From: a virus
Taxonomy: Duplodnaviria; Caudoviricetes
Virus record (IMG/VR): IMGVR_UViG_3300020420_000671
Reading direction: 5' to 3' (one strand)
Length of the DNA: 64,000 bases
The notes below the pieces were generated by a model. The model ran no database searches. It saw nothing but the letters and a program-made list of their open reading frames with translations, and was not told where the DNA came from. Below are positions 6,200 through 54,200 of this stretch, in pieces; position 1 is the stretch's first letter, and each line of letters opens with the position of its first letter. The translations under genes and the position numbers were made by a program.

Positions 6200-6487
6200 A
6201 TGAGCGAACGAACAAAAGAAGAAATAGTAGAAAATATTAATTTCATTGTAGATAAACATATTCAACCTGCTGTAGCACAGCATGGAGGAGTGGTCAAGCT
6301 AGAAGATTTTGATTTGGAAACAGGCGATGCCCTTATGCTTTTATCAGGTGCCTGCTCTGGTTGTGCCAGTAGCAGTATCACACTCAAGTTAGGTGTTGAA
6401 AATATGTTGAAGCATTACATTCCAGAAGTTCAAAAAGTCACTGGTATGGACGATCCAAATTCTACAGTAGATCCTTATTATGTTTAG
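6200..6487 (+). CDS. nifU: NifU/NfuA C-terminal-domain Fe-S scaffold protein
   Basis: IQPAVAQHGGVV...LSGACSGCASSSITLKLGVE (CxxC) NifU signature. Confidence 0.85.
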   Translation: MSERTKEEIVENINFIVDKHIQPAVAQHGGVVKLEDFDLETGDALMLLSGACSGCASSSITLKLGVENMLKHYIPEVQKVTGMDDPNSTVDPYYV

Positions 6488-6501: not shown

Positions 6502-7110
6502 ATGGCTTTAATAAACAAAGTAAATGACATAGAGTTTTATGCCGTGCCAAATCAGCATTGGGTGGTATCGGCTTTTTATCCTGACTATAAGGATTTAGAA
6601 AAGTTTTTTGATTTCACAGATATAGATATCAGTGAAAAGACTGCTACAGTAAATGGCCTACAGCGTCCTATCAAGAACGAAGAATGGACCGAAGAAAGAT
6701 CCAAATATATGGATTGGATCTTAGATACATGTAAACAAGCACAAATTCCTGTAACTGCTATTAAAGAAAGACAAAGCAAAGACCAAAGTGGTTGGAACTC
6801 TGCTTGGACTATTAATTATTTTCCAGGCGGTTGGCAGGCAGGACATTTTCATTCTACAGATAGAGCGGCACAATCTAACAAACGTTTTATATCAACAGTT
6901 ATGTTTTTTGATGACATAAAACCTACAAAAGATAATCGTTGGAATGGATGCTTGTATACCTTATTACAAAATCCTTATGGATATACATATGATCATAAGT
7001 TTCACCCAAAAGCAGGACAAGTAATAATGATGGATGATAGGGTATGGCATGGAACTTATCCTACAGAAGACAATCGTAGAGTTTTTGTAAGCGATTTTGA
7101 TGTAGAATGA
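6502..7110 (+). CDS. Putative 2OG-Fe(II) oxygenase superfamily protein
   Basis: GHFHS...DDRVWHGTYP...RRVFV pattern of the DSBH oxygenase fold. Confidence 0.55.
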   Translation: MALINKVNDIEFYAVPNQHWVVSAFYPDYKDLEKFFDFTDIDISEKTATVNGLQRPIKNEEWTEERSKYMDWILDTCKQAQIPVTAIKERQSKDQSGWNSAWTINYFPGGWQAGHFHSTDRAAQSNKRFISTVMFFDDIKPTKDNRWNGCLYTLLQNPYGYTYDHKFHPKAGQVIMMDDRVWHGTYPTEDNRRVFVSDFDVE

Positions 7111-14375: not shown

Positions 14376-14555
14376 ATGTCAGATATACACGAACAAATAA
14401 AAGCTCATTACGAAGCATACTTGGCTGAGGCAGAGTCTTTTGATACAAAAGGTGTAAAGGCCGCGGCCGCTAGAGCAAGAAAAGCTCTTGGCGAAATGGG
14501 CAAATTGGCAAAAGCTCGAAGAGCTGAGATCCAAGAAAAAAAGAATAATATGTAA
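14376..14555 (+). CDS. Histone H1-like (Hc1-family) small basic protein, 59 aa
   Basis: Below the track cutoff; SD AAGGAG; MSDIHEQIKAHYEAYLAEAESFDTKGVKAAAARARKALGEMGKLAKARRAEIQEKKNNM. Confidence 0.8.
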   Translation: MSDIHEQIKAHYEAYLAEAESFDTKGVKAAAARARKALGEMGKLAKARRAEIQEKKNNM

Positions 14556-14565
14556 ATAAATATAG

Positions 14566-14589
14566 TTAAGGAGGAGAAATCCTCCTTAA
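14566..14589. other. Perfect 10-bp stem with GAAA tetraloop
   Basis: TTAAGGAGGA-GAAA-TCCTCCTTAA, no U tract; lies in the Csp leader after TAAATA. Confidence 0.8.
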
Positions 14590-14606
14590 TCTTAGAAGGG
14601 CAAACT

Positions 14607-14825
14607 ATGGCACAACAAGGTAAGCTAAAATGGTATAATCATGTCAAGGGGTACGGCTTCATTTCAAGAGAAGAAGACCAGAAAGACCTCTTTTGTCACG
14701 TGTCTGAATTTAGAAAGTCAGGCATCAAGAAAGTTAAAGAAGGTATGATTATTGAATATGAACTTTCAGACCATAATGGCAAACCAGTAGCAGTCGATAT
14801 CAAAGTAGTTCACATTCCAGAATAG
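14607..14825 (+). CDS. Cold-shock domain protein
   Basis: GKLKWYNHVKGYGFI (RNP1), DLFCHVS (RNP2). Confidence 0.92.
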   Translation: MAQQGKLKWYNHVKGYGFISREEDQKDLFCHVSEFRKSGIKKVKEGMIIEYELSDHNGKPVAVDIKVVHIPE

Positions 14826-14834
14826 GAGAGGTAG

Positions 14835-15203
14835 ATGGCGGAAGCCATGTTGTTATTCATGTTGGTTATAAAACATGCCCTAGCTGATCTGGTACTACAG
14901 AGCAGACTTACTTCTGGAGACAAAAGCAATCTAAAGAGTTGGAAAGGTTACATACACGCAGGAGACCACGGCCTTCTTACGTTCGTTGTTCTCTTGTTCT
15001 TTACTACCTTTGAAAATTCTGTAATCATAGGCATGTTGGATTACGTGCTTCATTTCCTTATAGACTATATCAAAACTGTATTAGTAAGACGTTTTGGTGT
15101 AGTACAGAATAGCCGAACATTTTGGATTGTACAAGGTGTTGATCAAATAGCACATTATTCTTGTTATTTTCTTTACGTTCTTCTCTTGACAAATCTATTA
15201 TAA
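14835..15203 (+). CDS. DUF3307-like membrane protein
   Basis: KHALADLVLQ...HAGDHG...LHFLIDYIK...GVDQIAH. Confidence 0.75.
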   Translation: MAEAMLLFMLVIKHALADLVLQSRLTSGDKSNLKSWKGYIHAGDHGLLTFVVLLFFTTFENSVIIGMLDYVLHFLIDYIKTVLVRRFGVVQNSRTFWIVQGVDQIAHYSCYFLYVLLLTNLL

Positions 15204-15216
15204 GATGCTATAAATA
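15186..15216 (+). promoter_or_regulatory. Composite sigma70 and late promoter for the tmRNA
   Basis: TTGACA-17-TATAAA; the -10 extends to TATAAATA. Confidence 0.75.
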
Positions 15217-15220
15217 ATAC

Positions 15221-15283
15221 TACAACGTTGAAGCAATTCAAACGCTGGACAGGACCTGGGGGCAGTACCCAGCAGGTCCACCA
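15221..15283 (+). ncRNA. ssrA: Two-piece (circularly permuted) tmRNA, acceptor piece
   Basis: GGAC-CTGGG-GGCAGTA-CCCAG-CAGGTCC-A-CCA: alphaproteobacterial-type T-arm plus 3' acceptor strand with encoded CCA; 5' end approximate. Confidence 0.9.
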
Positions 15284-15296
15284 TAAGGACATTGCT

Positions 15297-15485
15297 ATGG
15301 AAGTCATTTGGCATATTCTACTTACGGTTTGTTTAGGTTCGACCTGCCTAGAGCAAGACGTACAAAGGTTTGAGTCCAAGGTAGAATGTTACAAAGTATT
15401 GAAATACTATGAAACAACACCAGCAGATGGTCGTTGGGACACAGTAGAATATATTTGTAAGCCAGTTGGCTCAGTGTCTTTATGA
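15297..15485 (+). CDS. 62-aa Cys-pair family protein inside the tmRNA intervening segment
   Basis: SD AAGGA just after the CCA; ATG 15297; MEVIWHILLTVCLG...FESKVEC...YICKPVGSVSL*; stop 1 nt before the tmRNA 5' G. Confidence 0.75.
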   Translation: MEVIWHILLTVCLGSTCLEQDVQRFESKVECYKVLKYYETTPADGRWDTVEYICKPVGSVSL

Positions 15486-15486
15486 T

Positions 15487-15711
15487 GGGCCTGAAATAGG
15501 ATCGACTGACGGATTAGTAGAAGAGTGGAGTTGTCCGGATGTAAGCTCGGTTAACGCGAACAAACGTTATAAATGCAAACGATAATGCATCAAACGTATT
15601 TTCTTTCGTAGATTTTTCTAACGCGAGAAAGTACGTGAATGAGGATTTCGCCTTAGCGGCTTAATCGCTCGGGGTTGGCAACTTACCTAGCAACAGAAAA
15701 GTTGCTTTTTT
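15487..15711 (+). ncRNA. ssrA: Two-piece tmRNA, coding piece
   Basis: 5' GGGCCTG pairs 7/7 with CAGGTCC including G3:U70; AAATAGGATCGAC D-loop region; resume context ATAAAT-GCA; ends in GCAACTT...GCAACAGAA...AAGTTGC-T7. Confidence 0.9.
15575..15664 (+). other. tmRNA tag reading frame ANDNASNVFSFVDFSNARKYVNEDFALAA*
   Basis: Translated by hand from resume codon GCA 15575 to TAA 15662-15664; ANDN start and ALAA end. Confidence 0.85.
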
Positions 15712-15723
15712 ATGGGAGCTAGT

Positions 15724-16554
15724 ATGAATATTGGAGTTAGAGGTAGCAAACTAGCAATTGAATATGCTAAACAAGTAGAAGCACAATGTTTTAACAGTTT
15801 CCATACCAATCTCATTACAATCAAAACAGACGGTGATATCTTTGAGAATAAAAGCATACAAGACATAGGCGGCAAAGGTGTTTTTGTTTCTGCTATTGAA
15901 CAGCAATTATTAGATAAAAAGATAGATGTTGCTGTACACTCTTTCAAAGATCTTCCTGCGGTAATGGATTCAAGATTAGAAATATCAGCAGTATTAGAAC
16001 GCAATGATCCGAGAGATTGTTATATTGGAACGTTGTTTCCGAAAGCTAAAGTAGGTACAGGTAGTCCTAGACGTATTGCCCAACTACAAACAAACTTCAA
16101 TGTAGACTTTGATATACAGCACATAAGAGGCAATATAGATACTAGAATAAAAAAGCTAGAACAAGGAAAGTATGACGCTATTGTTTTAGCAGTAGCAGGA
16201 CTAGAAGCATTGGGTTTACAACACAAAATTACAAAGATATTTCCATTTGATAAAATGTTGCCTTGTGTAGGACAAGGAGTAATAGCAATACAAACTAGAA
16301 AAGGATCATCGCATAGTGAGGTTGCGAAACTAAATAATCACTGGAATACATACTATTCTGTGATGGCTGAACGTGCTATGTTACAAGAGATAGACGGAGA
16401 CTGCCATACTGCCGTAGGTGCTATTTCTACTCTAGTTGGAGGCTGTATAAATTTAAAAGCAATAAATTATAATACAGGAAAACAGTTTGAGTCAACCAGT
16501 AAACTGTTAGAGTATAAATTATTAGGTGAGGAAGTAGGTAAACAGTTAAAGTGA
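15724..16554 (+). CDS. hemC: Hydroxymethylbilane synthase (porphobilinogen deaminase)
   Basis: GVRGSKLA, KTDGD, GGKGVF, AVHSFKD, VGTGSPRR, IRGNIDTR, GQG, AERA...GDC cofactor Cys; SD GGGAG before ATG 15724. Confidence 0.93.
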   Translation: MNIGVRGSKLAIEYAKQVEAQCFNSFHTNLITIKTDGDIFENKSIQDIGGKGVFVSAIEQQLLDKKIDVAVHSFKDLPAVMDSRLEISAVLERNDPRDCYIGTLFPKAKVGTGSPRRIAQLQTNFNVDFDIQHIRGNIDTRIKKLEQGKYDAIVLAVAGLEALGLQHKITKIFPFDKMLPCVGQGVIAIQTRKGSSHSEVAKLNNHWNTYYSVMAERAMLQEIDGDCHTAVGAISTLVGGCINLKAINYNTGKQFESTSKLLEYKLLGEEVGKQLK

Positions 16555-17531
16555 ATAAAAAATTTGAAAACGCCTGTAATAGGAAGAGCCAAAAAGTTCC
16601 TCCTATTTGGTTTATGCGACAAGCAGGTAGATATCATTCTCATTATAGAGATCTTAAAAAAGTAAACACATTCGAACTTTTATGTAAAACTCCGGAACTA
16701 GCCGCTGAAGTGGCATTAGGTCCTATAAAAGAATTTGATTATGATGTTTCAATATTATTTTCTGATATACTATTTCCTTTGGAGGGACTAGGCTTACCAT
16801 TAAGATTCGATCCAGGACCTAAGTTTCAGTTTAATCTTAGCAAAGATAATGTTAAACATCTGAGAGATGTTGATAAAGCAATTGAATTCCTTTCGTTTCA
16901 GAGAGATGCTCTTATAACAACAAGAGCAATACTGCCCAAAAGAAAAAGTCTAATTGGTTTTGTTGGAGGACCTTGGACATTAATGAACTATGCTTGTGGA
17001 AAAGCAAAAGTAACAGATAAGTTTAAATTAGATTATATGAAGTCTACTCTTATACCGTTACTAAAAAGAAATATAGAGTTACAGATAAATGCTGGTGCTG
17101 AGAAGGTTATGATTTTCGATAGCGGACTTCAAAACATGACGACTAAATTTTTTAATTCTAAATATTCTCCTTTATTGATGTCTTTGGCCATGCCACAAAC
17201 TGCTTACTATAGCAGAAACCTGCCCAGAAAATGTATCAATAAAGTAGTAGAAGGAGACTGGGGTGGCATAGGCGTTGATAGTAAGATAGACATAATAGAC
17301 TGTTTAGAAACTGTAGATAAAGGTTTTGTTCAAGGAAACTTTGATGAACGTAAAATGCTTTTACCTAAGTACAAGTTTATGTATGAAATAGAAAGATACT
17401 GTGACGATATTAGAAAATCAAAAGTTGACACAACAGGTTGGGTATGTGGATTGGGACATGGTATAGATAAGACGACTCCGGAAGAACACGTACATTTATT
17501 CATAGAAACTGTTAGAAACAGATTCTCATAA
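16551..17531 (+). CDS. hemE: Uroporphyrinogen decarboxylase
   Basis: PPIWFMRQAGRY, ILFSDIL, LIGFVGGPWTL, VQGN, GLGHGI; GTGA overlap with hemC. Confidence 0.93.
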   Translation: MNKKFENACNRKSQKVPPIWFMRQAGRYHSHYRDLKKVNTFELLCKTPELAAEVALGPIKEFDYDVSILFSDILFPLEGLGLPLRFDPGPKFQFNLSKDNVKHLRDVDKAIEFLSFQRDALITTRAILPKRKSLIGFVGGPWTLMNYACGKAKVTDKFKLDYMKSTLIPLLKRNIELQINAGAEKVMIFDSGLQNMTTKFFNSKYSPLLMSLAMPQTAYYSRNLPRKCINKVVEGDWGGIGVDSKIDIIDCLETVDKGFVQGNFDERKMLLPKYKFMYEIERYCDDIRKSKVDTTGWVCGLGHGIDKTTPEEHVHLFIETVRNRFS

Positions 17532-25461: not shown

Positions 25462-26037
25462 ATGCCACTAAAGGCAGAAGCATGGTTTCCTAGTCTTATC
25501 TGGTCTGGATTACTAGACAATACTCATAACGACAAAATCAAAAAATTTGCTTATGAAAGAAAAGAGCAAGACGAAGGGGTTGAGTTATCTAACTACATAG
25601 GCTGGCAAAGCAGTTCTATTAGGCAAGGAGATAATGAAACATTTGATAGACTAGTTGAATCCATATCTTCTAATGTTGAAGATTGTAGAAACCTAGTTGA
25701 ACTTCCTGAATTACAACTTTATAATATTTGGATTAACATTAACACACCTGGAGCATATAATGCCTTACACAATCACCCAGGAAGTGTTTTAAGTGGTGTT
25801 TACTATGTAGAGAGTACTGAAGAACAAGGTAACATATTTTTTGAAAGAGGTGATAATGCTGAATATTTTTTACCTCCCGTGAAACAAACTAATTACTTCA
25901 ATGGTACTGCTACGTCATATAAAGCTATAACAGGTGCTATGTATGTGTTTCCTAGCTGGTTAAAGCATAGTGTACAACCTAATAAAACAGATAAAGATAG
26001 AATATCAATATCATTTAACTACGGAGTGAAAAAATGA
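25462..26037 (+). CDS. 2OG-Fe(II) oxygenase (TIGR02466-like)
   Basis: WININ...HNHPG..LSGVYYV...FPSWLKHSV..N....RISISFN. Confidence 0.88.
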   Translation: MPLKAEAWFPSLIWSGLLDNTHNDKIKKFAYERKEQDEGVELSNYIGWQSSSIRQGDNETFDRLVESISSNVEDCRNLVELPELQLYNIWININTPGAYNALHNHPGSVLSGVYYVESTEEQGNIFFERGDNAEYFLPPVKQTNYFNGTATSYKAITGAMYVFPSWLKHSVQPNKTDKDRISISFNYGVKK

Positions 26038-27083
26038 GAATCGAACAGGATATTAAATTAGATTACCAAGACGTGCTTTTTAAGCCAAAGCGATCTACTT
26101 TAACATCAAGAAAAGATGTAGATCTTACAAGAACATTTAAATTTTACAATAGCGGAAAAGAATGGACAGGCATTCCTATCATGTCAAGCAACATGGACGG
26201 AGTAGGAACATTCGCTATGGCTAAAGTTTTACAAGAACAAAAGATGATTACTGTGTTGAGAAAACACTACACACTAGACGATTGGAAAGTAGCCATAGGT
26301 GACGGTGTAAAGATGAAGTATCTTTCTGTGTGTACAGGTACAGGCGTGATATGGGATAAAGATGCTTTAGATTATAACACTATGAAAAAGGTATTAGAAA
26401 AATATCCAGATGTGCCTTTTATCTGTGTTGACGTAGCAAATGGCTATCATGAAAATTACGGTGACTTTATAGAAAAATTAAGATACGAATACCAAGATAA
26501 AACAATTATTGCTGGCAATGTAATCACAGCCGAAATGACTGAGGAACTGATCCTACGAGGTGCTGATATTGTTAAATGCGGAATTGGTCCTGGATCTGTA
26601 TGTACAACTAGATTAATGACTGGTGTTGGTGTTCCACAATTATCTGGTATTATTGAATGTGCTGATGCGGCCAATGGCGTAGGAGGACACATTATTGCTG
26701 ACGGTGGTTGTGTGTATCCAGGAGATGTAGCAAAGGCATTTGGAGCAGGAGCACACTTTGTAATGCTAGGAGGCATGTTAGCAGGACATGATGAAGCAGA
26801 AGGTGAAGTTGTTAATGGCAAGGTACAGTTTTATGGCATGAGTTCAAATGCGGCAATGTCCAAGCACGGATCACGTAAAGACGGTTATAGAGGTGCTGAA
26901 GGTAAAGTTGTAGAGTTGCCACATAAAGGACCAGTAAGAGATACAGTTACAGAAATACTAGGCGGTGTTAGATCAGCGGCAACATATATTGGTGCTAAAC
27001 GTATAAAAGACATGCCAAAATGTACTACCTTTGTACGTGTGAACAATGTAGTAAATCAGGTATACAAATCATTTGAAGCATAA
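26034..27083 (+). CDS. guaC: GMP reductase
   Basis: KLDYQDVLFKPKRSTL, SSNMDGVGT, DVANGY, GIGPGSVCTTR, ADGG, GMSS, GGVRSA. Confidence 0.95.
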   Translation: MRIEQDIKLDYQDVLFKPKRSTLTSRKDVDLTRTFKFYNSGKEWTGIPIMSSNMDGVGTFAMAKVLQEQKMITVLRKHYTLDDWKVAIGDGVKMKYLSVCTGTGVIWDKDALDYNTMKKVLEKYPDVPFICVDVANGYHENYGDFIEKLRYEYQDKTIIAGNVITAEMTEELILRGADIVKCGIGPGSVCTTRLMTGVGVPQLSGIIECADAANGVGGHIIADGGCVYPGDVAKAFGAGAHFVMLGGMLAGHDEAEGEVVNGKVQFYGMSSNAAMSKHGSRKDGYRGAEGKVVELPHKGPVRDTVTEILGGVRSAATYIGAKRIKDMPKCTTFVRVNNVVNQVYKSFEA

Positions 27084-27110: not shown

Positions 27111-27158
27111 TTGACTTTTAGCCTAATCATGCTTATATTAGTATTAGTATGATAAATA
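27111..27158 (+). promoter_or_regulatory. Sigma70-type promoter plus late box upstream of hsp20
   Basis: TTGACT-17-TATATT (27111-27139) and TAAATA (27153-27158). Confidence 0.6.
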
Positions 27159-27246: not shown

Positions 27247-27687
27247 ATGACAAGAGTAACTACACTAAACCTACCCACTTTTCACAGATCAATGATTGGC
27301 TTCGACAGCTTGTTCGATGAGATGGACAGAATGTTCGAAAACAGTTCTAATGGATCAGGTGGATACCCTCCATACAATATTGCTAAAATCAACGAAGATG
27401 AGTTTATGATCTCAATCGCAGTTGCTGGCTTTGGTATGGATAACCTAAAGATTGAAAAGGACAAGAATGTGCTTACAATCGAAGGAACACAGCCTAAAGG
27501 CGTTGATGAAGTAAACTATGTTCACAGAGGTATTGCTGGACGTAACTTTACTAGACAATTTACATTAGCAGAACACGTTGATGTAAAATCAGCTAAACTA
27601 GAAAAGGGCATGTTAAATGTTCACCTAGTTAGAGAAGTTCCAGAAGAACTTAAACCAAAAACAATTGATATTGTTGAGGCTGAGTAA
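27247..27687 (+). CDS. Small heat-shock protein Hsp20 (IbpA-like)
   Basis: IGFDSLFDEM, YPPYNI, IAVAGF, HRGIAGRNFTRQFTL, LEKGMLNV. Confidence 0.95.
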   Translation: MTRVTTLNLPTFHRSMIGFDSLFDEMDRMFENSSNGSGGYPPYNIAKINEDEFMISIAVAGFGMDNLKIEKDKNVLTIEGTQPKGVDEVNYVHRGIAGRNFTRQFTLAEHVDVKSAKLEKGMLNVHLVREVPEELKPKTIDIVEAE

Positions 27688-27736: not shown

Positions 27737-28051
27737 ATGACTGAGATTATTTTAGAAAAAGAAATAAACGTAAAAGAGCAGATTGAAGAAGTTACTAAAG
27801 AACCTTCAAAGTATAAGGTCATATTTATGAATGATAACGAAACTCCTATGGACTTCGTTGTTGCTCTTTTAATAGAAATATTCAAACATTCAGAAAAAAC
27901 CGCCCAAGAGTTGACCATGAAAATACATGCTGATGGTCAGGCAATAGTAGGTATATACTCGTTCGAAATAGCAGAACAAAAGGCAGTAGAGGCCACTAAA
28001 TTATCACGTGAAAATGGCTATCCACTACAGATAGCAATAGACAAAGAATAG
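27737..28051 (+). CDS. clpS: ATP-dependent Clp protease adaptor ClpS
   Basis: PSKYKVIFMNDNETPMDFVV..LIEIF...IHADG.AIVG...EIAEQK. Confidence 0.92.
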   Translation: MTEIILEKEINVKEQIEEVTKEPSKYKVIFMNDNETPMDFVVALLIEIFKHSEKTAQELTMKIHADGQAIVGIYSFEIAEQKAVEATKLSRENGYPLQIAIDKE

Positions 28052-28094
28052 CATAAATACTTTGTTGAATGATAATTTTTACAAGGAGTAAAGC

Positions 28095-28676
28095 ATGAGT
28101 TTAGAATCTTTAACACAAGCGGCAAAACAAAATGCTGACAGAACGGAATTTGCTCGAGTAATGACAGCAGGTAATCTATCAGAGGACAAGTATAAAACTT
28201 TCCTTTGGAATGCTTATTTGGTGTACGATATCCTAGAAGATGTTGCGGCAAGTATGGGTGCATTTGCGCCTATGGATCCTTCAATGCCAGCTGATGATTT
28301 ACCACTTGATGGACTTAAACAAGCAGATGATATATTAGCAGACTTTGTTGAACTAGGTGGCGATCCAGATAATCCTCCAGCAGTAGTACAAGCTACTGAG
28401 GATTACAGAAGTCACGTCGTGAAAAATATACAACACGACAAGCAGAAGCTTATAGCTCACTTATATGTTAATCATATGACGGACTTAACTAACGGACCAA
28501 CATTAGAGAAAAAAGTACCAGGTTCAGGAAAAATGTACAAGTTTGAAGAAATGTCTCACTCTATCGAGGAGATGAAAGAACTTGTTTCAAGACGTTTTTC
28601 TGATGATGATGCTATTGAAGCTAACATTGGTTTTGGTTACAGAACACAACAGTACGAACAGTTAAACGCACTATAA
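28095..28676 (+). CDS. Heme oxygenase-like protein with degenerate heme-binding motifs
   Basis: Overall HO pattern (LT...NADRTEF...Y..FL.N.Y.VY..LE...AHLYV.HM.DL..G...KKVPGSG.MY.F), but Lys replaces the proximal His and GDLSGG is TDLTNG. Confidence 0.75.
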   Translation: MSLESLTQAAKQNADRTEFARVMTAGNLSEDKYKTFLWNAYLVYDILEDVAASMGAFAPMDPSMPADDLPLDGLKQADDILADFVELGGDPDNPPAVVQATEDYRSHVVKNIQHDKQKLIAHLYVNHMTDLTNGPTLEKKVPGSGKMYKFEEMSHSIEEMKELVSRRFSDDDAIEANIGFGYRTQQYEQLNAL

Positions 28677-28677
28677 G

Positions 28678-29361
28678 ATGATTTGGGACAAACTGGTTGA
28701 ATGCCAGGACCAAATCATTAAACTGTTCGATCATCATGGGACTGAGATAAATGAACCAGGAATGGATCATTTTAATCAACCCGGAAGCGGATGGATTAAC
28801 AGAGTCTGGGCAAACGACGACATCAGAAGAGCTCACATAGACGTGGTAGATGCTAGAGATACAAAAGGTCTCTGGATGATGCACGTTTGTGTTTTACCTC
28901 AACTTAACAACGATGGACCTATATACGGCTTTGATGTTATAGCAGGTAAAACAAAAATGACAGGAGCATTCCACGATTTTTCAGCAAGTTCAGGTGGCGA
29001 AGACCATCCAATGGTTCAATGGTATCAGGATGAGGTAAAAGATTTTATTCCGGAGAAAAAAAGAGAACTTCCGGAATGGGCAACAAATATTTTTACTCCT
29101 AGCATGATTGCGGCAAGTAATGTCAAGGAAGAAGAAGCATCAGTTATCATTCAAATAGCTCTTGATAATCTTTTCGAGTATCTTGATACCATTGGTGAAT
29201 ACACAGGACAAGGCGATAGAGATCTAACTCTAGCAAGCCAAAATTATTATTGTCATAATCAGCAACAGAACCCACATACGCCTAGAGTTATGAAATCCTT
29301 AGGATTAAATGAAGCTGACGTAGAAAAGTTCTGTACTGATATGTTATTTCCGAAAAGTTAA
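28678..29361 (+). CDS. pcyX: Ferredoxin-dependent bilin reductase, PcyX-type
   Basis: INRVW...RRAHIDVVD...WMMHVC...YGFDVIAG...GAFHDFS...QQQNPHT; adjacent to an HO-like gene. Confidence 0.82.
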   Translation: MIWDKLVECQDQIIKLFDHHGTEINEPGMDHFNQPGSGWINRVWANDDIRRAHIDVVDARDTKGLWMMHVCVLPQLNNDGPIYGFDVIAGKTKMTGAFHDFSASSGGEDHPMVQWYQDEVKDFIPEKKRELPEWATNIFTPSMIAASNVKEEEASVIIQIALDNLFEYLDTIGEYTGQGDRDLTLASQNYYCHNQQQNPHTPRVMKSLGLNEADVEKFCTDMLFPKS

Positions 29362-29870
29362 TTAGCCTTTACAGGATTATTCAATGGATTGTCTAATGCT
29401 CTCTGTATCTTAAGATCTAACTGTTCTTCAAGTTCATCGATCTTCTTATCCAGTCTATCTAGTTTGCTATCCATTCTTAATTCAAATGTATTGATAACAC
29501 CTCTAACTGTGTCAACATTAGCCCTGTTTCTTTCGTCCTGTTTGTCCATGCTGTCATGTAAATCTCCTACATCATCTTTGAGTTCTATCTTTATATCATG
29601 AACATCACTTTTTGTATCACCTAAAGTCTCTTTGAACATACCTATTTCGTCTTTCATTAAGATATAGTCCTCTTTAAGTATTGCTAGGTTTTTATCAAAT
29701 TCGCTAAGGTCGGGAGCCACATAAGCATCTATCTTTTTCTCCATCATAAGATATCTGTTATAAAGTTCAAAGCCTCCCCAAAGTCCACCGATAATGGTAC
29801 CCACTAAAGGAATGACAAGTAACAATTTACTGCCGCCTACTTTGATACCTTTATATTCTATTTCTGCCAT
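29358..29870 (-). CDS. Membrane-anchored coiled-coil protein
   Basis: N-terminal TM (LLLVIPLVGTIIGGLWGG) then heptad repeats; SD AGGAG and minus-strand late box. Confidence 0.65.
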   Translation of the reverse strand: MAEIEYKGIKVGGSKLLLVIPLVGTIIGGLWGGFELYNRYLMMEKKIDAYVAPDLSEFDKNLAILKEDYILMKDEIGMFKETLGDTKSDVHDIKIELKDDVGDLHDSMDKQDERNRANVDTVRGVINTFELRMDSKLDRLDKKIDELEEQLDLKIQRALDNPLNNPVKAN

Positions 29871-29893
29871 GTGTTTCTCCTATTAAATAGTAT

Positions 29894-32077
29894 TTATTGT
29901 AAACCAAGTCCATATCCTGGTTTATACTGTTCATTTATCATATCGTTCATCAGGTTGTCCTGTGCTGAACCAAATAAAGCACCGTATGGATCGCCCAACA
30001 TCTGTTGATCTCTGTACACTTGTTCATCAGAATACCACATCAAAGCGTCTTCATTCTGTTTTTGTATGTATTTTTTGTAGTTTTCTGTATCGGCTAAAGA
30101 CTGTATTAGGGCTATTTTAGTTGTTTCATTAATAGCACTATAAGTATCAGCCATAGCACTTAAAATTCTGTTGGCTATTTTTTGTTTAGCCTTTGCTATT
30201 TCGGTCTTAATTCTTTCCTTAGTCTGCTTCGATTTTGTGCCGGACTTAGATTTTTTATTTCCTCCTTTTTCTTTAGCATCTGTTTTTTCTCCTCCAGACT
30301 CTTCTCTCCCGACATCATCTCCATCTTCCGCATTGGTCTCATCTGTTCTGCTATCTCCGGCTTCGGATTCGGCTTCTGATTCACTGGTATTTTCTCCAGA
30401 ATCAGAGTCTCCATCGGACTCTGTCCTAGATTCTGTTTCAGTGTTATTTTCTTCCACTGACTGTTCAGCATTACTATCGGACTCTTGTACACTTTCTTGG
30501 TTAGACTCAGAAGTGGACGAATCTGTACTGCTTTCGGTTTCGGAAACTTCCGCTTCCACACTGGCATTTTCTGTTGCTCCCTCTTCTACAGTATTTACTT
30601 CAATATCAACTGTGGCTTCTGTTGTTGGCTCTACGTTAACTTCCATTTCAACGTTTGTAGAACCTGCGTCAGCAACCTCTATGTTAGTGTCTGGCATATC
30701 TATTTCTATTTCTATTTCACCAACAGCATCTGCTACCGCTGTATCAATTTGTGAACCAATGTCTGCTTCTATTTCTGCTACAGTAATTTCTGGAAGTTCT
30801 GTTGGACCTACATCTAAGTCAAAGTTTAGATCTATTTCAGCAATAGTTTCTACTTGTACAACTCCTGTGTCTAAGTTTGTTGAAGCCATTTCAACTGTAG
30901 TAACATTTGATGTTTCGTCTACTTCTACTGTAAACTCCATTTCAATACCGCCGCCTGTTTCTTCGTTTACTATTTCTATCTCGAATGAATCAACTTCTGT
31001 GTAATCTATAGGCTCAACTACTATTGTGTCTTGTATAGGATCACCTATGAACACACTTGTTAATGTATCTTCGCTGGTATTATAAACTGTTGTTTGGTTG
31101 CTTAATATAATTTGTGTTATTGTTTCTGTAATAGTTGTTATAGCATCATAAGTAAGTGTCATAAAAGGATTACTAAACACAGGACCATAATAACCTGAGT
31201 GGTATCCTGCATCAACTCCCCACAGTTCCATCTGTCCCCATACTTCTGTTATAGAATTGGTGCTTAATGTTTGTGCCAAGATATCCTGCGTGAATGAATG
31301 TGTTTGTGTGCCGTTGTAAGTAAGTGTTACGGTATTTGAATATTCAGCAAAGTTGGTTATATTATTACTTGGACCGCCATAAAGTCTTGTAGTGATTCTA
31401 AATACATCTTTACAGTCACCATTGGTGTTGGCACATAAAGGCACAGAAGTATTTGATTTGTGTGATTGTACATCAACACCATAGTTTAGTGTCATGCCTG
31501 ATTGTATCTCCGCTATGGTCAAGTCGTGTGTCATTTCAAATCGTTCTGAAGTTATTTGTCCGCCACCCAATGCCGTGAAGTTATAATTATTACCATCTTG
31601 GATAAGACTGTTATTGTTATTGTGTTGGTAACCTGTACAGGCTTGACCTGCACCAACAGTTGCATTTGATCCGCCTGTTCTACATTGTGTTTGACCTTCT
31701 AACTTTATTCTACCTTCAGTTGACCAATCACTTGAATTAATAGTTGGCACAAAGTTTGAAGTTGTTGTGGCTGTTATCTGTGATGTTTGTTGTGTAGTAG
31801 TTGTAGATGTGGCAATCTCTTCAACCACTGTTTCAGTCCAGTTAGTTGTAACTGTCGTATCTTCGAAGCCACCATTGAGTGTTACCTCTGTATTTGTAAC
31901 AACAGATGTGACTGTGCTGGAGGTTACAGTACCTCCGTTAGGTCCAGTATCGCCAACGTTATATTGTTGTGTGTATGCTTCTAATGGATTAGAGTAAGAA
32001 CAACAGAAGAGCACCAATACCAATGCTCCAAGTAGTTGCTTTATTCTGCCACTCTTTTTCGTATGCTTCAAGATCAT
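29894..32077 (-). CDS. Large secreted/surface protein with beta-rich domain and long acidic tract
   Basis: Signal-like LLGALVLVLFCC, Thr-rich region, Cys pairs, E/D/S-rich linker, basic C-terminus; start uncertain. Confidence 0.65.
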   Translation of the reverse strand: MILKHTKKSGRIKQLLGALVLVLFCCSYSNPLEAYTQQYNVGDTGPNGGTVTSSTVTSVVTNTEVTLNGGFEDTTVTTNWTETVVEEIATSTTTTQQTSQITATTTSNFVPTINSSDWSTEGRIKLEGQTQCRTGGSNATVGAGQACTGYQHNNNNSLIQDGNNYNFTALGGGQITSERFEMTHDLTIAEIQSGMTLNYGVDVQSHKSNTSVPLCANTNGDCKDVFRITTRLYGGPSNNITNFAEYSNTVTLTYNGTQTHSFTQDILAQTLSTNSITEVWGQMELWGVDAGYHSGYYGPVFSNPFMTLTYDAITTITETITQIILSNQTTVYNTSEDTLTSVFIGDPIQDTIVVEPIDYTEVDSFEIEIVNEETGGGIEMEFTVEVDETSNVTTVEMASTNLDTGVVQVETIAEIDLNFDLDVGPTELPEITVAEIEADIGSQIDTAVADAVGEIEIEIDMPDTNIEVADAGSTNVEMEVNVEPTTEATVDIEVNTVEEGATENASVEAEVSETESSTDSSTSESNQESVQESDSNAEQSVEENNTETESRTESDGDSDSGENTSESEAESEAGDSRTDETNAEDGDDVGREESGGEKTDAKEKGGNKKSKSGTKSKQTKERIKTEIAKAKQKIANRILSAMADTYSAINETTKIALIQSLADTENYKKYIQKQNEDALMWYSDEQVYRDQQMLGDPYGALFGSAQDNLMNDMINEQYKPGYGLGLQ

Positions 32078-36760: not shown

Positions 36761-36974
36761 CAAATGTATGATTACCTGTACAGACAACGATAATGTTGCT
36801 GAAGCAGAAGTTGATAGATTTGAAGAAAAGAAATTTTTAGATGTATTTTTAGCACAAAATAAAATACACATGGAATGGAACGGTAAAGTGTTTGTGGGCA
36901 ATAAACTAGGAATGGAATTCACAACACCAGGACCAGAAGAATTAGCAATACTGAAAGGAAGAGGAGATGCCTAA
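36741..36974 (+). CDS. Hypothetical phage protein
   Basis: SD AAGGA before ATG 36741. Confidence 0.6.
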
Positions 36975-37551
36975 TCTAGTACCAGTCATTATAGAAAAAG
37001 AAGCAAGAGGAGAAAGAAGCTACGACATATATAGTAGACTTCTCAAGGACAGAATCATTATGTTAGACACTGATGTGAATAGCACCAGTGCCAGTTTAAT
37101 TGTAGCACAGATGCTTTTCTTAGAATCAACATCTCCTGGAAAACCTATTAATTTTTATATTAATTCACCAGGTGGTAGTGTAACTGCTGGAATGAGCATA
37201 TATGACACAATGCAATTTATAAAATCACCAATACATACAACAGTGATGGGAATTGCGGCAAGTATGGGAAGTTTTCTTGCTATGGCAGGAGAGCCAGGTA
37301 AAAGAGCGATATTACCTCATGCTAGACACATGATTCATCAGCCTAGTGGAGGAGCATCTGGACAGGCAAGTGATGTTGAGATAAGATACAAAGAATTACA
37401 GTATTGGAAAGAAACACTCACTGACTTGTATGTGAAACACATAGGTTTAGATAGAGAAAAGGTAGCCAAAGACATGGATAGAGATTTCTTTATGAGTGCT
37501 CAGGAATCTATCGATTATGGGTTAGCAGATTACATAGCAGAGAAAAAATAA
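36967..37551 (+). CDS. clpP: ATP-dependent Clp protease proteolytic subunit
   Basis: [26 protein letters not shown] (Ser), MIHQP (His), DRDFF (Asp). Confidence 0.96.
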
Positions 37552-38494: not shown

Positions 38495-38758
38495 ATGACT
38501 AAAAAGAATAAAGATTTTTCCGGTAACTTAATTAGGATATCAATACTGGAGAAAGAAATAGAGTTTGCTAGAAGCCAACTACAACCACATGATACTGGAC
38601 ATATTCATACAGCCATAAGCTGGTTAGAATCAAGACTAAATCATTTGAAAGGTATTAAAGAAGAAGAAATAGATTATCCTGATGGATATTCAAATGAATG
38701 GCGACAGCAACAACAAGATCCAAGACATAATCAATCTGCTTTTAAAGGAAACATTTAG
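38495..38758 (+). CDS. Hypothetical phage protein
   Basis: SD AAGGAG; RSQLQPHDTGHIHTAISWL. Confidence 0.65.
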   Translation: MTKKNKDFSGNLIRISILEKEIEFARSQLQPHDTGHIHTAISWLESRLNHLKGIKEEEIDYPDGYSNEWRQQQQDPRHNQSAFKGNI

Positions 38759-39348
38759 TGAACAACACTTTTAACAATGTTTTTCCTACACTAGTTGGCA
38801 CTTTTGAATTAAAAACTGTCAACAACGAAACACTTATGAACAAGATGGACATGGCAGGTAACGTAGGGCATGGACTGATAGAAAATGGAGTAAGCAGTTA
38901 TGTTGGTGGAGAAGATTGTTTCTTAACAAGATTGAATATTGAAGACTTAAAAAAAGAAATACTATATCATTTGAATGAATACTGTTTTCAAGCAGGTATT
39001 GCTCCTAACTATATCATAAACAGTTGGGCTAATGTGCTTGAACAACAGGGATTAGTAAAAAGGCATAGGCATGAAAAATCAATCATTAGTGGTGCTTACT
39101 ATCCGAATGATAGTGATGCTAATTTAATTTTAGAAAATCCTAATACAATATTTCAAATGACACAAACGAATGTAAACGATAGCATTTACAATTCAGAAAA
39201 AATTTCAATTAAACCTAAGGCAGGTTTGTTGGTAATGTGGCCTAGTCACATCTATCATTATACAGAAAGCAATGATAAAAATAAAAGATACACGGTAAGT
39301 TTTAATACTTTAGACGAATCTTACAAAAGTGCACTAAATAGAAGATAA
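38758..39348 (+). CDS. 2OG-Fe(II) oxygenase (TIGR02466-like)
   Basis: SWANV...HRHE...SGAYYP...WPSHIYHYT..N...RYTVSFN. Confidence 0.85.
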   Translation: MNNTFNNVFPTLVGTFELKTVNNETLMNKMDMAGNVGHGLIENGVSSYVGGEDCFLTRLNIEDLKKEILYHLNEYCFQAGIAPNYIINSWANVLEQQGLVKRHRHEKSIISGAYYPNDSDANLILENPNTIFQMTQTNVNDSIYNSEKISIKPKAGLLVMWPSHIYHYTESNDKNKRYTVSFNTLDESYKSALNRR

Positions 39349-46905: not shown

Positions 46906-47355
46906 ATGGGAAAATACTATTCTACTAAAACATACGGACACAATATAGGATTAAGTGCTGTATTTAGACAGCCAAATGCTGATCATTCCCATTGTCATTT
47001 GCTACACGGATATAGTTTACAATTTAAATTTACTTTTGGTTGTAAAGAACTTGACAACAAAAATTGGGCAGTTGACTTTGGTGGATTGAAACCTTTGAAA
47101 GCATGGTTGGAAGACAACTTTGATCACAAATTATGTTTAGATAATAATGATCCACACATTGGAAAATTTAAAGAACTTGAAGCATTGGACCTCGCTGAAC
47201 TTAGAATGTTTGATGGTGTTGGTGCTGAAAAGTTTGCCGAACACGCATTTAACTTTGCTGACAAACTTATCAGGGAAAAAACAAATGATAGATGTTTTGT
47301 AGTGAGTGTTGAATGTGCTGAGCATGGTGCTAATTCTGCTATATACGAGAAATAA
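46906..47355 (+). CDS. queD: 6-carboxytetrahydropterin synthase / PTPS family
   Basis: HSHCHLLHGYS, VDFGGLK, FDH, AEKFA, VE..E. Confidence 0.85.
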   Translation: MGKYYSTKTYGHNIGLSAVFRQPNADHSHCHLLHGYSLQFKFTFGCKELDNKNWAVDFGGLKPLKAWLEDNFDHKLCLDNNDPHIGKFKELEALDLAELRMFDGVGAEKFAEHAFNFADKLIREKTNDRCFVVSVECAEHGANSAIYEK

Positions 47356-48630: not shown

Positions 48631-49334
48631 ATAAATTTATTTTTGATGTTGACGGAACACTTACACCTAGTAGACAAGAAATTGATATGGACTTTGCTGT
48701 TTTCTTTACAGACTTCTGTGCTGAAAATGATGTATATCTTGTTACTGGTAGTGATAGAGAAAAAACAATAGAACAGGTAGGCGAGGAAATATATAGCTTG
48801 GCTGACAGAGTTTACAACTGTTCAGGTAGCGATGTATGGGATGGAAATGTTAATGTTTACACAAGTGATTGGAAGATTCCTGAAGAAGCAGAACAATGGT
48901 TAAAGGCAGAATGTAGATGTAGCGAGTTTCCATTGAGAACAGGTTTACATATTGAAAAAAGGCCTGGCATGATAAATTTTAGTGTAGTTGGTAGAAACGC
49001 AACTATGGGTGAACGAAAGTTATATGTAGAATACGATAACAAAACAAAGGAAAGAATTAAAATTGCCAAAGAATTCCAAAAGTTTTTTCCTGCCATACAA
49101 GCAGTGGTTGGTGGCGAAACTGGTATTGATATCTTTCCTTATGGCAAAGACAAGGCCCAAATTATAAATGATTTTGATGAACTTAATGATACTTTACACT
49201 TTTTTGGTGATAGAATGGATCCAGCAGGAAATGATTATCCTTTGAAAAGAGTAATACTTGACAATGATTTGGGTATGTGCTATAGTGTTAAAGACTGGAA
49301 ACACACATGGAAGTTATTAAAAAAACATGACTAG
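48624..49334 (+). CDS. HAD-IIB phosphomannomutase (eukaryotic PMM-like)
   Basis: FDVDGTLT, VTGSD, IEKRPGMINFS, GGETGID, FFGD...GNDYP. Confidence 0.9.
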   Translation: MVDKFIFDVDGTLTPSRQEIDMDFAVFFTDFCAENDVYLVTGSDREKTIEQVGEEIYSLADRVYNCSGSDVWDGNVNVYTSDWKIPEEAEQWLKAECRCSEFPLRTGLHIEKRPGMINFSVVGRNATMGERKLYVEYDNKTKERIKIAKEFQKFFPAIQAVVGGETGIDIFPYGKDKAQIINDFDELNDTLHFFGDRMDPAGNDYPLKRVILDNDLGMCYSVKDWKHTWKLLKKHD

Positions 49335-50343
49335 AAGAATAGGCTTCGCATGTAAATACATGCATGAAGATCAAACACAAAAGAAAAAGCTTCTGGAAGA
49401 AATTCAAAGGCCTTTGAATACAAGGTCCACAACTGTTGCTTGGTTAAATAGACAGACAAAAGAAGTAGCAGAAGAAAGACTATGGGATATTTGTAAACAC
49501 AACATTCAATCCTATTACAATTTAATTAAGTACGTGGGAGGACTACAACATGATTTACGAATGGTTAGACTTGGTTCCGATGTTTTGCCTGTTTACACTG
49601 AGCCTACTTGGGGCTATTTCTGGAAGCTACCTGATGTACGTAAATATTGCGAACAGGCTTTGGCACCAGTCGGTGAGTTGGCTCGCAGTCTTGATGTACG
49701 CCTTAGTATGCACCCTGGTCAGTTCACTGTCCTTGCTAGTGATAGTGACGATATAGTAAATAGAAGTGTAGAGGAGTTTGAATATCATGTTGATGTCGCA
49801 AGATGGATGGGGTACGGTAGACAATTCCAGGACTTTAAGATCAATGTCCACATCTCCGGCCGTAAGGGTCCAGCCGGTATCCTCAACGTCCACCCAAGAT
49901 TATCTCCGGAGGCGAGAAACACAATTACAATCGAAAACGACGAAAACTCGTGGGGTATCGACGCAAGTTTGGAGTTACGAAAACACCTCGCATTGGTGCT
50001 TGACATACACCATCACTGGGTCAAAACAGGTGAATATATTCAGCCTACCGACGATAGATTTTCTCGCATAATAGACAGTTGGCGTGGTGTGCGTCCTGTC
50101 ATACATTACTCTGTATCACGAGAAGACATACTAATTGATCATGATATAAACACACTACCAAACATGGAGAAGTTACTTGAACAAGGATACAAAAAACAAA
50201 AACTACGTGCTCATAGCGACTATATGTGGAATACTGCTGTTAACGATTGGGCTTTATCTTTTAGAGATTACGCTGATATAATGGTAGAAAGCAAGGCAAA
50301 GAATTTAGCGAGTATAAAACTCTTCGAATCGGCCAATAAATAA
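49327..50343 (+). CDS. uvsE: UV damage endonuclease
   Basis: IGFACKY, RLSMHPGQF, INVH, TIENDE, LDIHHH, HYS, RAHSD, MVESKAK. Confidence 0.93.
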   Translation: MTRRIGFACKYMHEDQTQKKKLLEEIQRPLNTRSTTVAWLNRQTKEVAEERLWDICKHNIQSYYNLIKYVGGLQHDLRMVRLGSDVLPVYTEPTWGYFWKLPDVRKYCEQALAPVGELARSLDVRLSMHPGQFTVLASDSDDIVNRSVEEFEYHVDVARWMGYGRQFQDFKINVHISGRKGPAGILNVHPRLSPEARNTITIENDENSWGIDASLELRKHLALVLDIHHHWVKTGEYIQPTDDRFSRIIDSWRGVRPVIHYSVSREDILIDHDINTLPNMEKLLEQGYKKQKLRAHSDYMWNTAVNDWALSFRDYADIMVESKAKNLASIKLFESANK

Positions 50344-50869: not shown

Positions 50870-51199
50870 ATGATGTCAAACATACTATTTTTAACTGATC
50901 AAGCAAAGGAACAAATGGTTACAATGCTTGAAGAACATGATAAAAAAGCAGTTAGATTGTCCTTAAAGGGCGGTGGCTGTGCTGGTTTTAAATACGATTG
51001 GACATTGGCAGATGAAGCAGAAAAAGACGATGAAGTGATAGAACTTCCAAAAGGAAAGTTTTTAATTGACCCAGCGAGTATTATGTACTTGATTGGATCA
51101 AAAGTAGACTACAAGAAGGAAGTATTCGGTTCATATTTTTCAATTGAAAATCCAGCTTCAACATCAAGTTGTGGTTGTGGAGAGAGCATAGGATTTTAA
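50870..51199 (+). CDS. iscA: A-type Fe-S carrier (IscA/HesB/SufA family)
   Basis: GGGCAGFKY, GSKVDY, CGCGES. Confidence 0.92.
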   Translation: MMSNILFLTDQAKEQMVTMLEEHDKKAVRLSLKGGGCAGFKYDWTLADEAEKDDEVIELPKGKFLIDPASIMYLIGSKVDYKKEVFGSYFSIENPASTSSCGCGESIGF

Positions 51200-51202
51200 T
51201 AC

Positions 51203-54200
51203 ATGGCTAGACAAGATATTTATTTAGGGGTTGAAGGTAACGACGGTACTGGTGATAGTATTCGTGAAGCATTTAAAAAAGCTAACGAAAACTTTACTGA
51301 ACTTTATGCTGTATTTGGACAAGGCGGAACAATCAGCTTTACAGCATTAAGTGATACACCCACAGCTATTACACCAAACGGACTTCTAATAGGTAACACG
51401 ACCGGAACAGAATTAATACAAAAAACATTAACAGGTGGTACAGGTATATCAATTGATAATACAAGTGCTACAAACATTACAATAACAAACACTGGTGCTA
51501 ATATTAATGCTGACACTAGTCCTATACTAGGTGGACCATTAAGTGGTAATGCTGTTTATCCTATAGGAAAAATTAACACATCTACTGCCGCTGTAGCAGA
51601 ATTTAATCAAACTCATGCTTCACAAATTACAATAGATGACCTTGTAACAGATAAAAAATATCAAGATAAAAATTACGCACCTCATACAGTCACACAAACT
51701 AATAAATCTGTGTATGCTAGATCTGAACCGACTAATGATGCGGAATACACACAAACAATTACAGAATATAGATCAGGTAACGTTGTAATATCCAACCATG
51801 GATTTGATAACAGCTTCAATGGTACACAATGGAAATATTCGACTACAAATACAGCACCAAATGGATTGACAAACAACACTGATTATTTTGTTAGATTTGT
51901 TTCTTCAGATCAACTCAGTCTACACACAACTAAAACTGAGGCACAAAATGATGACGATCTTACAAGAGTAAAAGTCAACATAGGTTTAGGATCAACAACT
52001 GCCGTAACAGGTACAGATGTAATTAAAGATCAAAGTTATAATGAAAGTTTATATGGTAATTACAGAATTGACGAAGTCATGCCGAGAAATGCTTCAGTTA
52101 GAAGACAGGGAGATGAATTAGCAGGACCTTTATATCTTTCAGACCATCCTGGTTATCTACAAGGCACTACAGGCCCTATAGAAGATAGACAAGCGGCTTC
52201 AAAACTTTATGTTGATAATTCTTCTTATGCGAGTACTGAAGATCTTTTTGTAACAAAACAAGGTGATGATACCCAAGCTAATACTCCAGTTGGTTTTGAA
52301 GGAAGAGGATTAAGCTATGCTTTTGGAAGTTTAAAAGCGGCGGCTTTAAAAGCACAAGAGATAATGGAGTCAGCACCAATAGAACCTGGTGCTTATAGAC
52401 AAACTATTACGTTCAATGCCGGCGACGGAATTTCATTAGTTACAAAATCTGAAACTAAAACACCTAACTCTGCGGCATCGAGTGCTATAAAATATTTACA
52501 AGGAAGTAAAAAGTTTGTACAAAAATCTGTAGTAGATTATGTAAAAGATAATTTTCCTACACACAGTTTCTTTGATACAAATGTTATTAATACAAACACA
52601 GAAAGTTTGTTATTTAAAAATAAAAAATTTATACAAGAAGAAGTTACAGCCTGGATTAATTATCAAATCAACACAGGAGCAACTGTAAGCTATAGTGATG
52701 GTACTGCTGACTTTACAGGATTCAAATACAGTTCAGCAAAATGTAAAAGAGATGTAGGATACATTGTTGACGCTTGGGAAAATGATTTAGCCAGAGGCGG
52801 AAACATTGAAACACGTAGAATAGCTTCAAGTTATCTAGCTGGTGCTGTGAATGCTGTAAACAAAAATACAAGTAACGCAGGTAATACTGTCAACCAAATA
52901 GCCCAAACAAATGCCGCAATCGAATTTGCTAGAGATTTAGTTAAGGATTATATTTTAACAGGAACAGCTTATCCTACAAAACAGGGATACTTCCAAGTTA
53001 ATGCTTCTAACTTAACTGGTACTGGTTTTAGATTTTATATTGGTACATCATCATACGCCAATGCTTATGTAAATGGTGGACTAGTTACCAAATCAGATGG
53101 AACACAACTTAACGTAAGCACATTCACATATGATTATACAACAGGATTTGCCGATGTAGTTACAACTACGACACATGGATTATCAGCAGGTAATACAGTA
53201 CAGCTAACTGGTATAAATGTTTCCTGTACATATGAAGGTTCAACACAGCAAAAAGTATATCCAGAACTTGTAAGTCAAGCAAACTGTTATAAATTTACAG
53301 TACAGAACACGGGTTACTTAGGAACAGCTCCTACATCAAATCAATTACAAATTTACGTAGGTCCAAGTAAGTACGGACACACTTATGTAAGTGGTGGTAC
53401 CATAAAAGGAACTTTAACAGAATTTTCTCCAACAGGAGCAACTTACAATCCTGCGACAGGAGATATGGTAATTACCATAGGTAACCATACCCTCACTACT
53501 TCTAACACAATTGAAATAGAACCAAACAGTTTTACGTTTACATGTGCCAAAGATAACAATGCTACATTACATTCTTATCCTAGAAAAGAATCTGTAACAT
53601 CATCGCCAAGCAGTGATCCAGCATACAATACAGCTTTAGCTATTACGGCAGTAGGCAGTACAACAATAACAGTTAATGTAGGTATATCTTCTGATACAAG
53701 TGTACACACTTTCGTAGGAGCAAGAACAAATGCTGTCAAGTATTACTCAGAAAGTAACACAATTACTGGTTTCAATTATAGTAACACAACAGGTTATGCT
53801 ACAATAACAACTTCAAATACACATAGTTTAGTAGCAGGAAACAAAGTCGAATTAGCTGACATTTATCTATCTTGTACAGCACCAACAGCAAGTAATACAT
53901 ATTACCCACAACCAATTTACGCAGATTACGGAACTGGTAACAAAGATATTCCTGGTAGAGCAAATACTCTTACAGAACTTATTGTAGATGTGATTGCTAA
54001 TGGATTAGGAAAAGTGCCTGCTCCAGTACAACCAGAAAAAGCTAACAACACTTGTGAAAGAGATTTGGGACTTATAATCGATGGTATGATAATCGATATT
54101 AGAAACGGAACAAATTCAAACTTCAACGCATTACAAGCGGCCAAGAGATATTTCAGTACACCTAGTGGAGCAAAAGCAAGAATAAGTCAAAAGACAGAAA

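Follow-up and report, generated by a model that had tools for sequence, protein, structure and literature searches.

Several described phage systems turn heme into bilins, and four of them lie close to the locus studied here. T4-like cyanophages carry ferredoxin-dependent bilin reductases (FDBRs) as auxiliary genes, either PebS, which makes phycoerythrobilin (PEB) in one enzyme, or PcyA together with ho1 (e.g., the pcyA of P-SSM4). In marine viral metagenomes, the PhiPcyX/PhiHemO cassette places hemO directly upstream of pcyX in a non-cyanobacterial phage setting; the cassette of PcyX_EBK42635, the structure of which has been solved (5OWG), comes from Ledermann et al. (2016 and 2018), according to PMC11480375. 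Pelagibacter phage Mosig EXVC030M (MT647606), a T4-like phage of 141 kb with a SAR11 host, has adjacent hemO and pcyX genes, and viral alaS-hemO-pcyA/X cassettes on pelagimyophage-like marine contigs join a tetrapyrrole-synthesis gene to the heme-to-bilin genes (PMC11480375, Nat Commun 2024). Published work thus already covers the hemO-pcyX cassette and its activity, Mosig, and viral alaS (PMC11480375 and the works cited there). Here, we analyzed a stretch of 64,000 nucleotides (hereafter, the window) of the IMG/VR virus record IMGVR_UViG_3300020420_000671, in which a pcyX-type open reading frame (ORF) follows a heme oxygenase (HO) homolog and lies downstream of two heme-biosynthesis genes, hemC and hemE. 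An original prediction, made from the letters of this stretch, had seen in these genes a near end-to-end tetrapyrrole-to-bilin route in a non-cyanophage. Our analysis favors, with a probability of roughly 55%, the joint reading that PcyX is an active PEB-making enzyme, that hemC and hemE are an accessory booster of host steps, and that the HO homolog no longer cleaves heme.

The identity of PcyX was supported by profile, structure and residue comparisons. The ORF matched the Pfam family PF05996 (Fe_bilin_red) with 59.2 bits (cut-off 31) and the solved PcyX_EBK42635 along its full length (residues 1-225, E 9e-81, 274 bits), with the best PcyA match falling far below (E 1.2e-12, 51 bits). Because the alignment with 5OWG is ungapped to approximately residue 103 (chain offset 8), the window numbering equals PcyX numbering in this part of the protein. 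Asp55 is found within HIDVVD, Met67 and His69 within MMH, and Asp86 within GFD. The His69/Asp86 pair and Asp55, which is a Glu in PcyA, are therefore all present, as they are in the PhiPcyX/PhiHemO cassette. In an alignment of 39 hemO-adjacent homologs on IMG/VR contigs, D55, H69, and D86 are invariant, and H69 and D86 are invariant also across 82 sequences. The structure match and these invariant residues confirm the PcyX type, which the original prediction had read from the same three motifs and from the Asp in place of the PcyA Glu. Asp55 has been described as a PcyX-specific catalytic residue, and a phage FDBR that lacks it makes phycocyanobilin and is a true PcyA (PMC11480375). Judged by its residues, the window PcyX is predicted to convert biliverdin IXalpha to PEB, a reduction for which it would use host ferredoxin.

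PcyX is also tightly constrained. The 39 sequences share 92 invariant positions, and the ratio of nonsynonymous to synonymous substitution rates (dN/dS) is 0.03-0.06 across diverged contigs, including genomes with an altered HO, which indicates purifying selection. An identical PcyX protein was found on 14 contigs of different samples, 2 of which measure 0.2-1 Mb. In the window, a single nucleotide separates the stop codon of the HO homolog from the start of pcyX. Of 81 relatives, 31 have a pcyX without an ATG, the first aligned codon being translated as Leu, Ile, or Val while the genes are full length (seen in L018, L027, L066, L075, and others, at approximately locus position 10001). This suggests TTG, ATT, or GTG starts that are tightly coupled to the HO stop in these relatives.

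The HO homolog itself departs from the canonical enzyme. Its AlphaFold2 model (predicted local distance difference test score 94) resembled HO-1 (including Synechocystis HO-1), HO-2, and HmuO in Foldseek searches, with template-modeling scores of 0.77-0.83, and it matched PF01126 with 45 bits, although over profile positions 7-140 only. The fold and the Pfam domain of an HO are thus present, but the proximal His and the G-D-x-S-G-G motif are not. The proximal His of human HO-2 aligns with Lys11, and the first helix contains no other His; in 68 of 72 phage relatives this column is His. In the distal helix, the window protein reads MTDLTNG where at least 58 of 76 relatives read MGDLSGG, so that the Asp is kept and both key glycines, which are Gly in 69-73 of the 76, are replaced. 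With neither the proximal His nor the glycine motif of the distal helix left, the homolog had been rightly called degenerate. The four closest contigs are altered in their HO as well (position 11 is His with a distal ADLTDG in L002, Gln with GDLEG and a deletion in L003 and L004, and Lys with GDLE and a deletion in L017), whereas the sister clade is canonical. Compared with the PhiPcyX/PhiHemO cassette, the locus therefore differs in the residues of its hemO, and also in its position behind hsp20 and clpS and in the presence of hemC and hemE. From these substitutions, the HO homolog of this lineage probably no longer cleaves heme.

The loss of the canonical HO residues, together with Pfam scores of 42-55 bits for the altered homologs against 65-87 in relatives, could also mean that pcyX and the HO homolog form a functionless relic that is being lost. 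We consider this very unlikely. Both ORFs are intact, and the altered HO homolog is still under purifying selection at a dN/dS of approximately 0.1: within the altered subclade the values are approximately 0.07-0.24 (0.10 for the window against L002 and 0.07 for L003 against L004), close to the 0.08-0.18 of canonical copies. The constraint on PcyX, the recurrence of the exact protein in different samples, and the presence of the region in RNA libraries of four studies (see below) also speak against decay. Because PcyX is tightly constrained even where the HO residues are lost, it does not depend on the catalysis of the neighboring HO.

In the favored reading, the altered HO homolog would have been kept as a tetrapyrrole-binding or hand-over partner, or another oxygenase may perform its catalysis instead. 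Searches of the five longest relatives, which are fragments, for a second HO, a plant-type ferredoxin (Fer2), and a cytochrome b found none of them. The title of PDB entry 5BTQ, human HO-1 H25R with bound biliverdin, suggests by analogy that bilin binding can persist in an HO fold whose proximal His is missing, and for this reason the HO homolog may be a bilin acceptor. A more far-reaching proposal is that the HO homolog of this subclade has turned from an enzyme into the tetrapyrrole-binding partner of PcyX, as a carrier or acceptor of biliverdin or PEB, with alaS, hemC, and hemE driving bulk PEB production in infected SAR11 cells. This is speculative and, in our estimation, improbable. The complex prediction for PcyX and the HO homolog gave a score of 0.28 (mark 0.32), a value that speaks neither for nor against binding.

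The two heme genes stand apart from pcyX, 11-13 kb upstream of it, as a translationally coupled pair. Both ORFs are intact, the GTG start of hemE overlaps the hemC stop as GTGA when read directly in the sequence, and the end of hemE lies 11.1 kb before pcyX, in agreement with the 11 kb originally given. HemC keeps the equivalent of E. coli S13 (compared with 1AH5) as well as those of R11, K83/D84, R131/R132, R149, R155, and the cofactor Cys242, the latter group, which includes the substrate-binding arginines and the catalytic Asp, being invariant in 18 sequences. HemE, compared with 3CYV, keeps the RQAGRY, SDIL (with its Asp), PWTL..Y, and LGHGI motifs. In the HemC tree, the phage clade and Pelagibacteraceae form one group on a long branch (support of 100 in the Shimodaira-Hasegawa-like approximate likelihood-ratio test), and all other bacteria, other Alphaproteobacteria included, lie apart from it. 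This placement suggests a SAR11 origin of the phage hemC.

In the GenBank phage collection, Mosig included, no genuine phage with hemC or hemE was found; the matches obtained there came from entries misfiled as phage, namely bacterial contigs or unannotated fragments. Porphobilinogen deaminase and uroporphyrinogen decarboxylase do not appear as phage genes in PMC11480375, and a search for viral auxiliary genes in the literature available returned no publication on phage hemC or hemE. In IMG/VR, however, close relatives of the window hemC were found on 7 contigs and of hemE on 16. When contigs of at least 45 kb were selected by hemC or hemE, 4 of 4 also contained pcyX, and a divergent hemE lineage (52% identity) is among them. 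Conversely, hemC was present on 9 of 33 pcyX contigs tested (6 of 28 long ones and 3 of 5 more), and hemE on 5 of the 28 long ones. Among 39 related contigs, alaS occurs on 7, and 2 contigs hold alaS, hemC, hemE, hemO, and pcyX together: G014 (the L031 record), in which hemC and hemE are 33 kb apart, and G024 (the L066 record), in which alaS, hemE, and hemC lie within 8 kb and approximately 31 kb from hemO-pcyX. The co-occurrence of hemC/hemE with pcyX in other genomes, which had been proposed as a check, was thus found, and since the genes share other contigs it cannot be said that they never occur together. The two relatives of highest completeness (262 and 275 kb) carry hemO-pcyX and alaS without hemC or hemE, and because they keep hemO-pcyX in this state, PcyX does not depend on hemC/hemE. 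The two heme genes are accessory among pcyX phages.

The claim of a near end-to-end route is not supported by this comparison. Pfam scans of the window, which took in all ORFs of at least 90 amino acids and some smaller ones, detected no tetrapyrrole gene beyond hemC, hemE, and HO-pcyX, and no ferredoxin. The window therefore contains 2 of approximately 8 biosynthetic steps plus an altered HO and pcyX, and lacks most of what a self-contained pathway would comprise (alaS or hemAL, hemB-hemE, hemF/N, hemY/G/J, hemH, an active HO, and an FDBR). Moreover, hemB, hemD, and hemH (ferrochelatase) were found on 0 of the 39 related contigs. Instead, the pcyX phages would share an accessory tetrapyrrole toolkit of alaS, hemC, and hemE in differing combinations, which would add capacity at steps 1, 3, and 5 of the host heme pathway and would never have replaced that pathway. 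Phage HemC and HemE would raise tetrapyrrole flux in the infected cell while the host would supply HemB, HemD, and the late enzymes. Without HemD, hydroxymethylbilane spontaneously cyclizes to the dead-end isomer I, and host HemD must therefore keep pace.

The same gene distribution can be read as a dedicated supply of bilin precursors, in which PEB itself is wanted by the phage, for example as an antioxidant, a signal, or a chromophore. The steps of alaS, hemC, and hemE are plausible as flux-control or branch-point steps, which fits such a supply, as do the strong constraint on PcyX, the 2 contigs with all five genes, and the presence of pcyX on every long hemC/hemE contig. The published three-gene alaS-hemO-pcyA/X cassettes likewise link synthesis and breakdown physically (PMC11480375); the window genes differ from them in adding steps 3 and 5 from a position outside the cassette, 11 kb away and behind a transfer-messenger RNA (tmRNA). 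A dedicated supply is also hard to reconcile with a route that is broken at a key step by an HO without catalytic residues, and with relatives that are the most complete and hold hemO-pcyX without either heme gene. In addition, an acceptor or lyase was not found: the scans of the window ORFs gave no bilin-binding family, as had been noted at the outset with the possible exception of the degenerate HO, and acceptor genes were not found in the five longest relatives. SAR11-type hosts are not known to possess a bilin acceptor. We regard a dedicated precursor supply as possible but doubtful.

The nature of the phage and its host was assessed from the window and its relatives. The window is T4-related, with a gp9/10-like baseplate protein, a class I ribonucleotide reductase (RNR), a DNA ligase, and tail-fibre-like proteins. 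CheckV completeness of related IMG/VR contigs (22% for 78 kb, 73% for 262 kb, and 77% for 275 kb) corresponds to a genome of approximately 340-350 kb; related contigs reach 275-372 kb, and the short phage-type hemC occurs on contigs of 340-372 kb. Because this scaling, the hemC contigs, and the PcyX contigs of 0.2-1 Mb agree on a jumbo size, the data point to an uncultured marine T4-related jumbo phage with a genome of approximately 340-350 kb. The closest isolate is Mosig, the PcyX of which is 54.6% identical over 100% of the length. The window clade differs from Mosig, however, not only in genome size but also in its gene content, since Mosig has ferrochelatase and 2OG oxygenase genes (2OG, 2-oxoglutarate) upstream of its cassette and hemC/hemE were not found in it, whereas no ferrochelatase was found among the 39 contigs related to the window.

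The tmRNA upstream of hemC is of the alpha type (RF01849, 91.5 bits with a gathering threshold of 50, E 1.5e-23; RF04321, 91.2 bits), which is a weak host clue and not a part of the pathway. This tmRNA has a long loop insert and an unusually long tag of 29 residues that starts with ANDN and ends with ALAA. Together, Mosig, the HemC tree, and the tmRNA point to SAR11 (Pelagibacterales) as the most likely host. Cyanophages are the classic carriers of FDBR genes, and the weaker PcyX matches are indeed cyanophage pcyA genes, so one may ask whether this is a cyanophage whose PcyX feeds the phycobilisomes of its host as PebS does. We give this hardly any credence. The identity to those cyanophage genes is 24-30%, cyanobacterial hosts have bilin-accepting phycobiliproteins, and none of the five longest relatives (fragments that add up to 838 kb) yielded a psbA/D, phycobiliprotein, or lyase (CpeS or CpeT) gene. 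Along with the three host indications, this upholds the initial view of a non-cyanophage.

The cassette is part of a conserved block. By tblastn across 81 pcyX loci, the HO gene was detected in 76, clpS in 75, and hsp20 in 71, and a GMP-reductase-like gene and a 2OG-Fe(II) oxygenase gene lie farther upstream in 50-53 of the 81. There is no obvious reason for the link of hsp20-clpS to hemO-pcyX. A sigma70-like site of the host type precedes hsp20 (Table 1), and the T4 late-promoter motif TATAAATA shows no enrichment, with 6 matches in the window where 9 would be expected. Contigs from four marine metatranscriptome libraries of four studies span the 3' end of clpS, the HO gene, and pcyX with 98-99% identity (e.g., 27980-28994 and 28180-29083), and such contigs fit a single transcript. 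This cover leaves out most of hemC/hemE as well as the minus-strand genes that follow pcyX, which, as these are contigs only, is no sign of silence. The minus-strand genes are two in number and confined to the closest relatives; one encodes 170 amino acids whose hydrophobic N-terminal part gives way to charged, heptad-like repeats (judged by eye), and the other a Ser/Thr/Glu/Asp-rich protein of 727 amino acids with a hydrophobic N-terminus and without a Pfam match. With its Hsp20, ClpS, full ClpP, and tmRNA, the window contains a proteostasis set.

Table 1. Features of the window, with positions counted from its first nucleotide.
Feature	Position	Strand	Basis or description
Iron set: NifU-like domain protein, IscA/HesB-like Fe-S assembly protein, three 2OG-Fe(II) oxygenase-type ORFs	6200-6487, 50870-51199, 6502-7110, 25462-26037, 38758-39348		
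Histone H1-like Hc1 protein, then cold-shock domain protein	14376-14825		59 amino acids (PF07432), then 72 amino acids
tmRNA	15182-15708	+	two-piece (permuted), alpha-type; directly upstream of hemC; Rfam, ARAGORN
hemC, porphobilinogen deaminase (hydroxymethylbilane synthase)	15712-16554	+	short 280-amino acid phage form; PF01379 (E 4e-63) and PF03900
hemE, uroporphyrinogen decarboxylase	16551-17531	+	PF01208 (E 4.6e-56)
Other auxiliary genes: GMP-reductase-like IMPDH-family protein; 6-pyruvoyl-tetrahydropterin synthase (QueD-like); UvdE UV-damage endonuclease	26034-27083, 46906-47355, 49327-50343		
Promoter-like site ahead of hsp20	27111-27139		TTGACT, 17 nucleotides, TATATT
hsp20	27247-27687	+	first gene of the conserved block; PF00011 (E 1.8e-16)
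clpS	27737-28051	+	PF02617 (E 6.9e-28)
HO homolog	28095-28676	+	HO fold without canonical catalytic residues; PF01126, alignment, AlphaFold2 model
pcyX, PcyX-type FDBR	28678-29361	+	227 amino acids; PF05996, 5OWG match, residues
Two minus-strand genes	29358-32077	-	
clpP (full)	36967-37551		
ORF of 2628 amino acids, followed by tail-fibre-like proteins	51203-59089	+	no Pfam match
Subtilase	61435-63039		

The window is notably iron- and redox-centred, with glutaredoxin, peroxiredoxin, and the class I RNR besides the iron set of Table 1. This content is relevant to a further explanation, by which HO and PcyX free the iron of host heme for the iron enzymes of the phage, PcyX clearing biliverdin for HO turnover, and the heme genes are unrelated respiratory housekeeping. 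The slow release of biliverdin is the limiting step of HO, which is the premise of this idea, and the RNR, the three 2OG-Fe(II) oxygenases, the NifU-like and IscA/HesB-like proteins, and the glutaredoxin are candidate recipients of the iron. The gene order of Mosig, in which hemO-pcyX stands behind four 2OG-Fe(II) oxygenases and ferrochelatase, and the ferrochelatase-oxygenase linkage in pelagiphages (PMC9599517) agree with it. Such an iron economy would need an active HO, however, and the catalytic residues are lost in this genome; boosting heme while destroying heme for its iron would also be working at cross purposes. We therefore judge it unlikely.

The favored reading, an active PcyX with accessory host-step boosters and an HO homolog that has lost heme cleavage, has to be set against several points that speak for caution. 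The regiospecificity of FDBRs has been surprising before, as the CB_2 "PcyA/X" turned out to be a PcyA (PMC11480375). Lys11 might still ligate heme in the window HO homolog. The grouping of hemC with SAR11 was flagged as one that could be inflated by a shared AT-rich amino-acid composition, and hemE shows no SAR11 affinity in its tree; because the phage hemE clade sits on a very long branch, no donor can be assigned to it. The co-occurrence of hemC/hemE with pcyX may come from the shared ancestry of one phage clade, where hemO-pcyX is near-core, and not from functional coupling. The pathway count covers the window only, that is, 64 kb of a genome of approximately 340 kb. Finally, the RNA-library contigs could contain DNA carry-over, and expression cannot be ranked from contigs.

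Ever since the description of PcyX, it has been puzzling that phages whose marine hosts are not photosynthetic should make a light-harvesting pigment. Within the pcyX jumbo-phage clade, alaS, hemC, and hemE vary and hemB, hemD, and hemH were never found among the related contigs, a pattern that would reflect the host steps that are limiting for the phage. Through its hemC gene, apparently acquired from SAR11, the system is linked to the most abundant heterotroph in the sea. What intrigues most at this locus is the altered HO beside a PcyX that is tightly conserved: if the improbable proposal of a switch from enzyme to binding partner were true, the HO homolog would be the first bilin-binding protein encoded by a phage whose host lacks phycobiliproteins.

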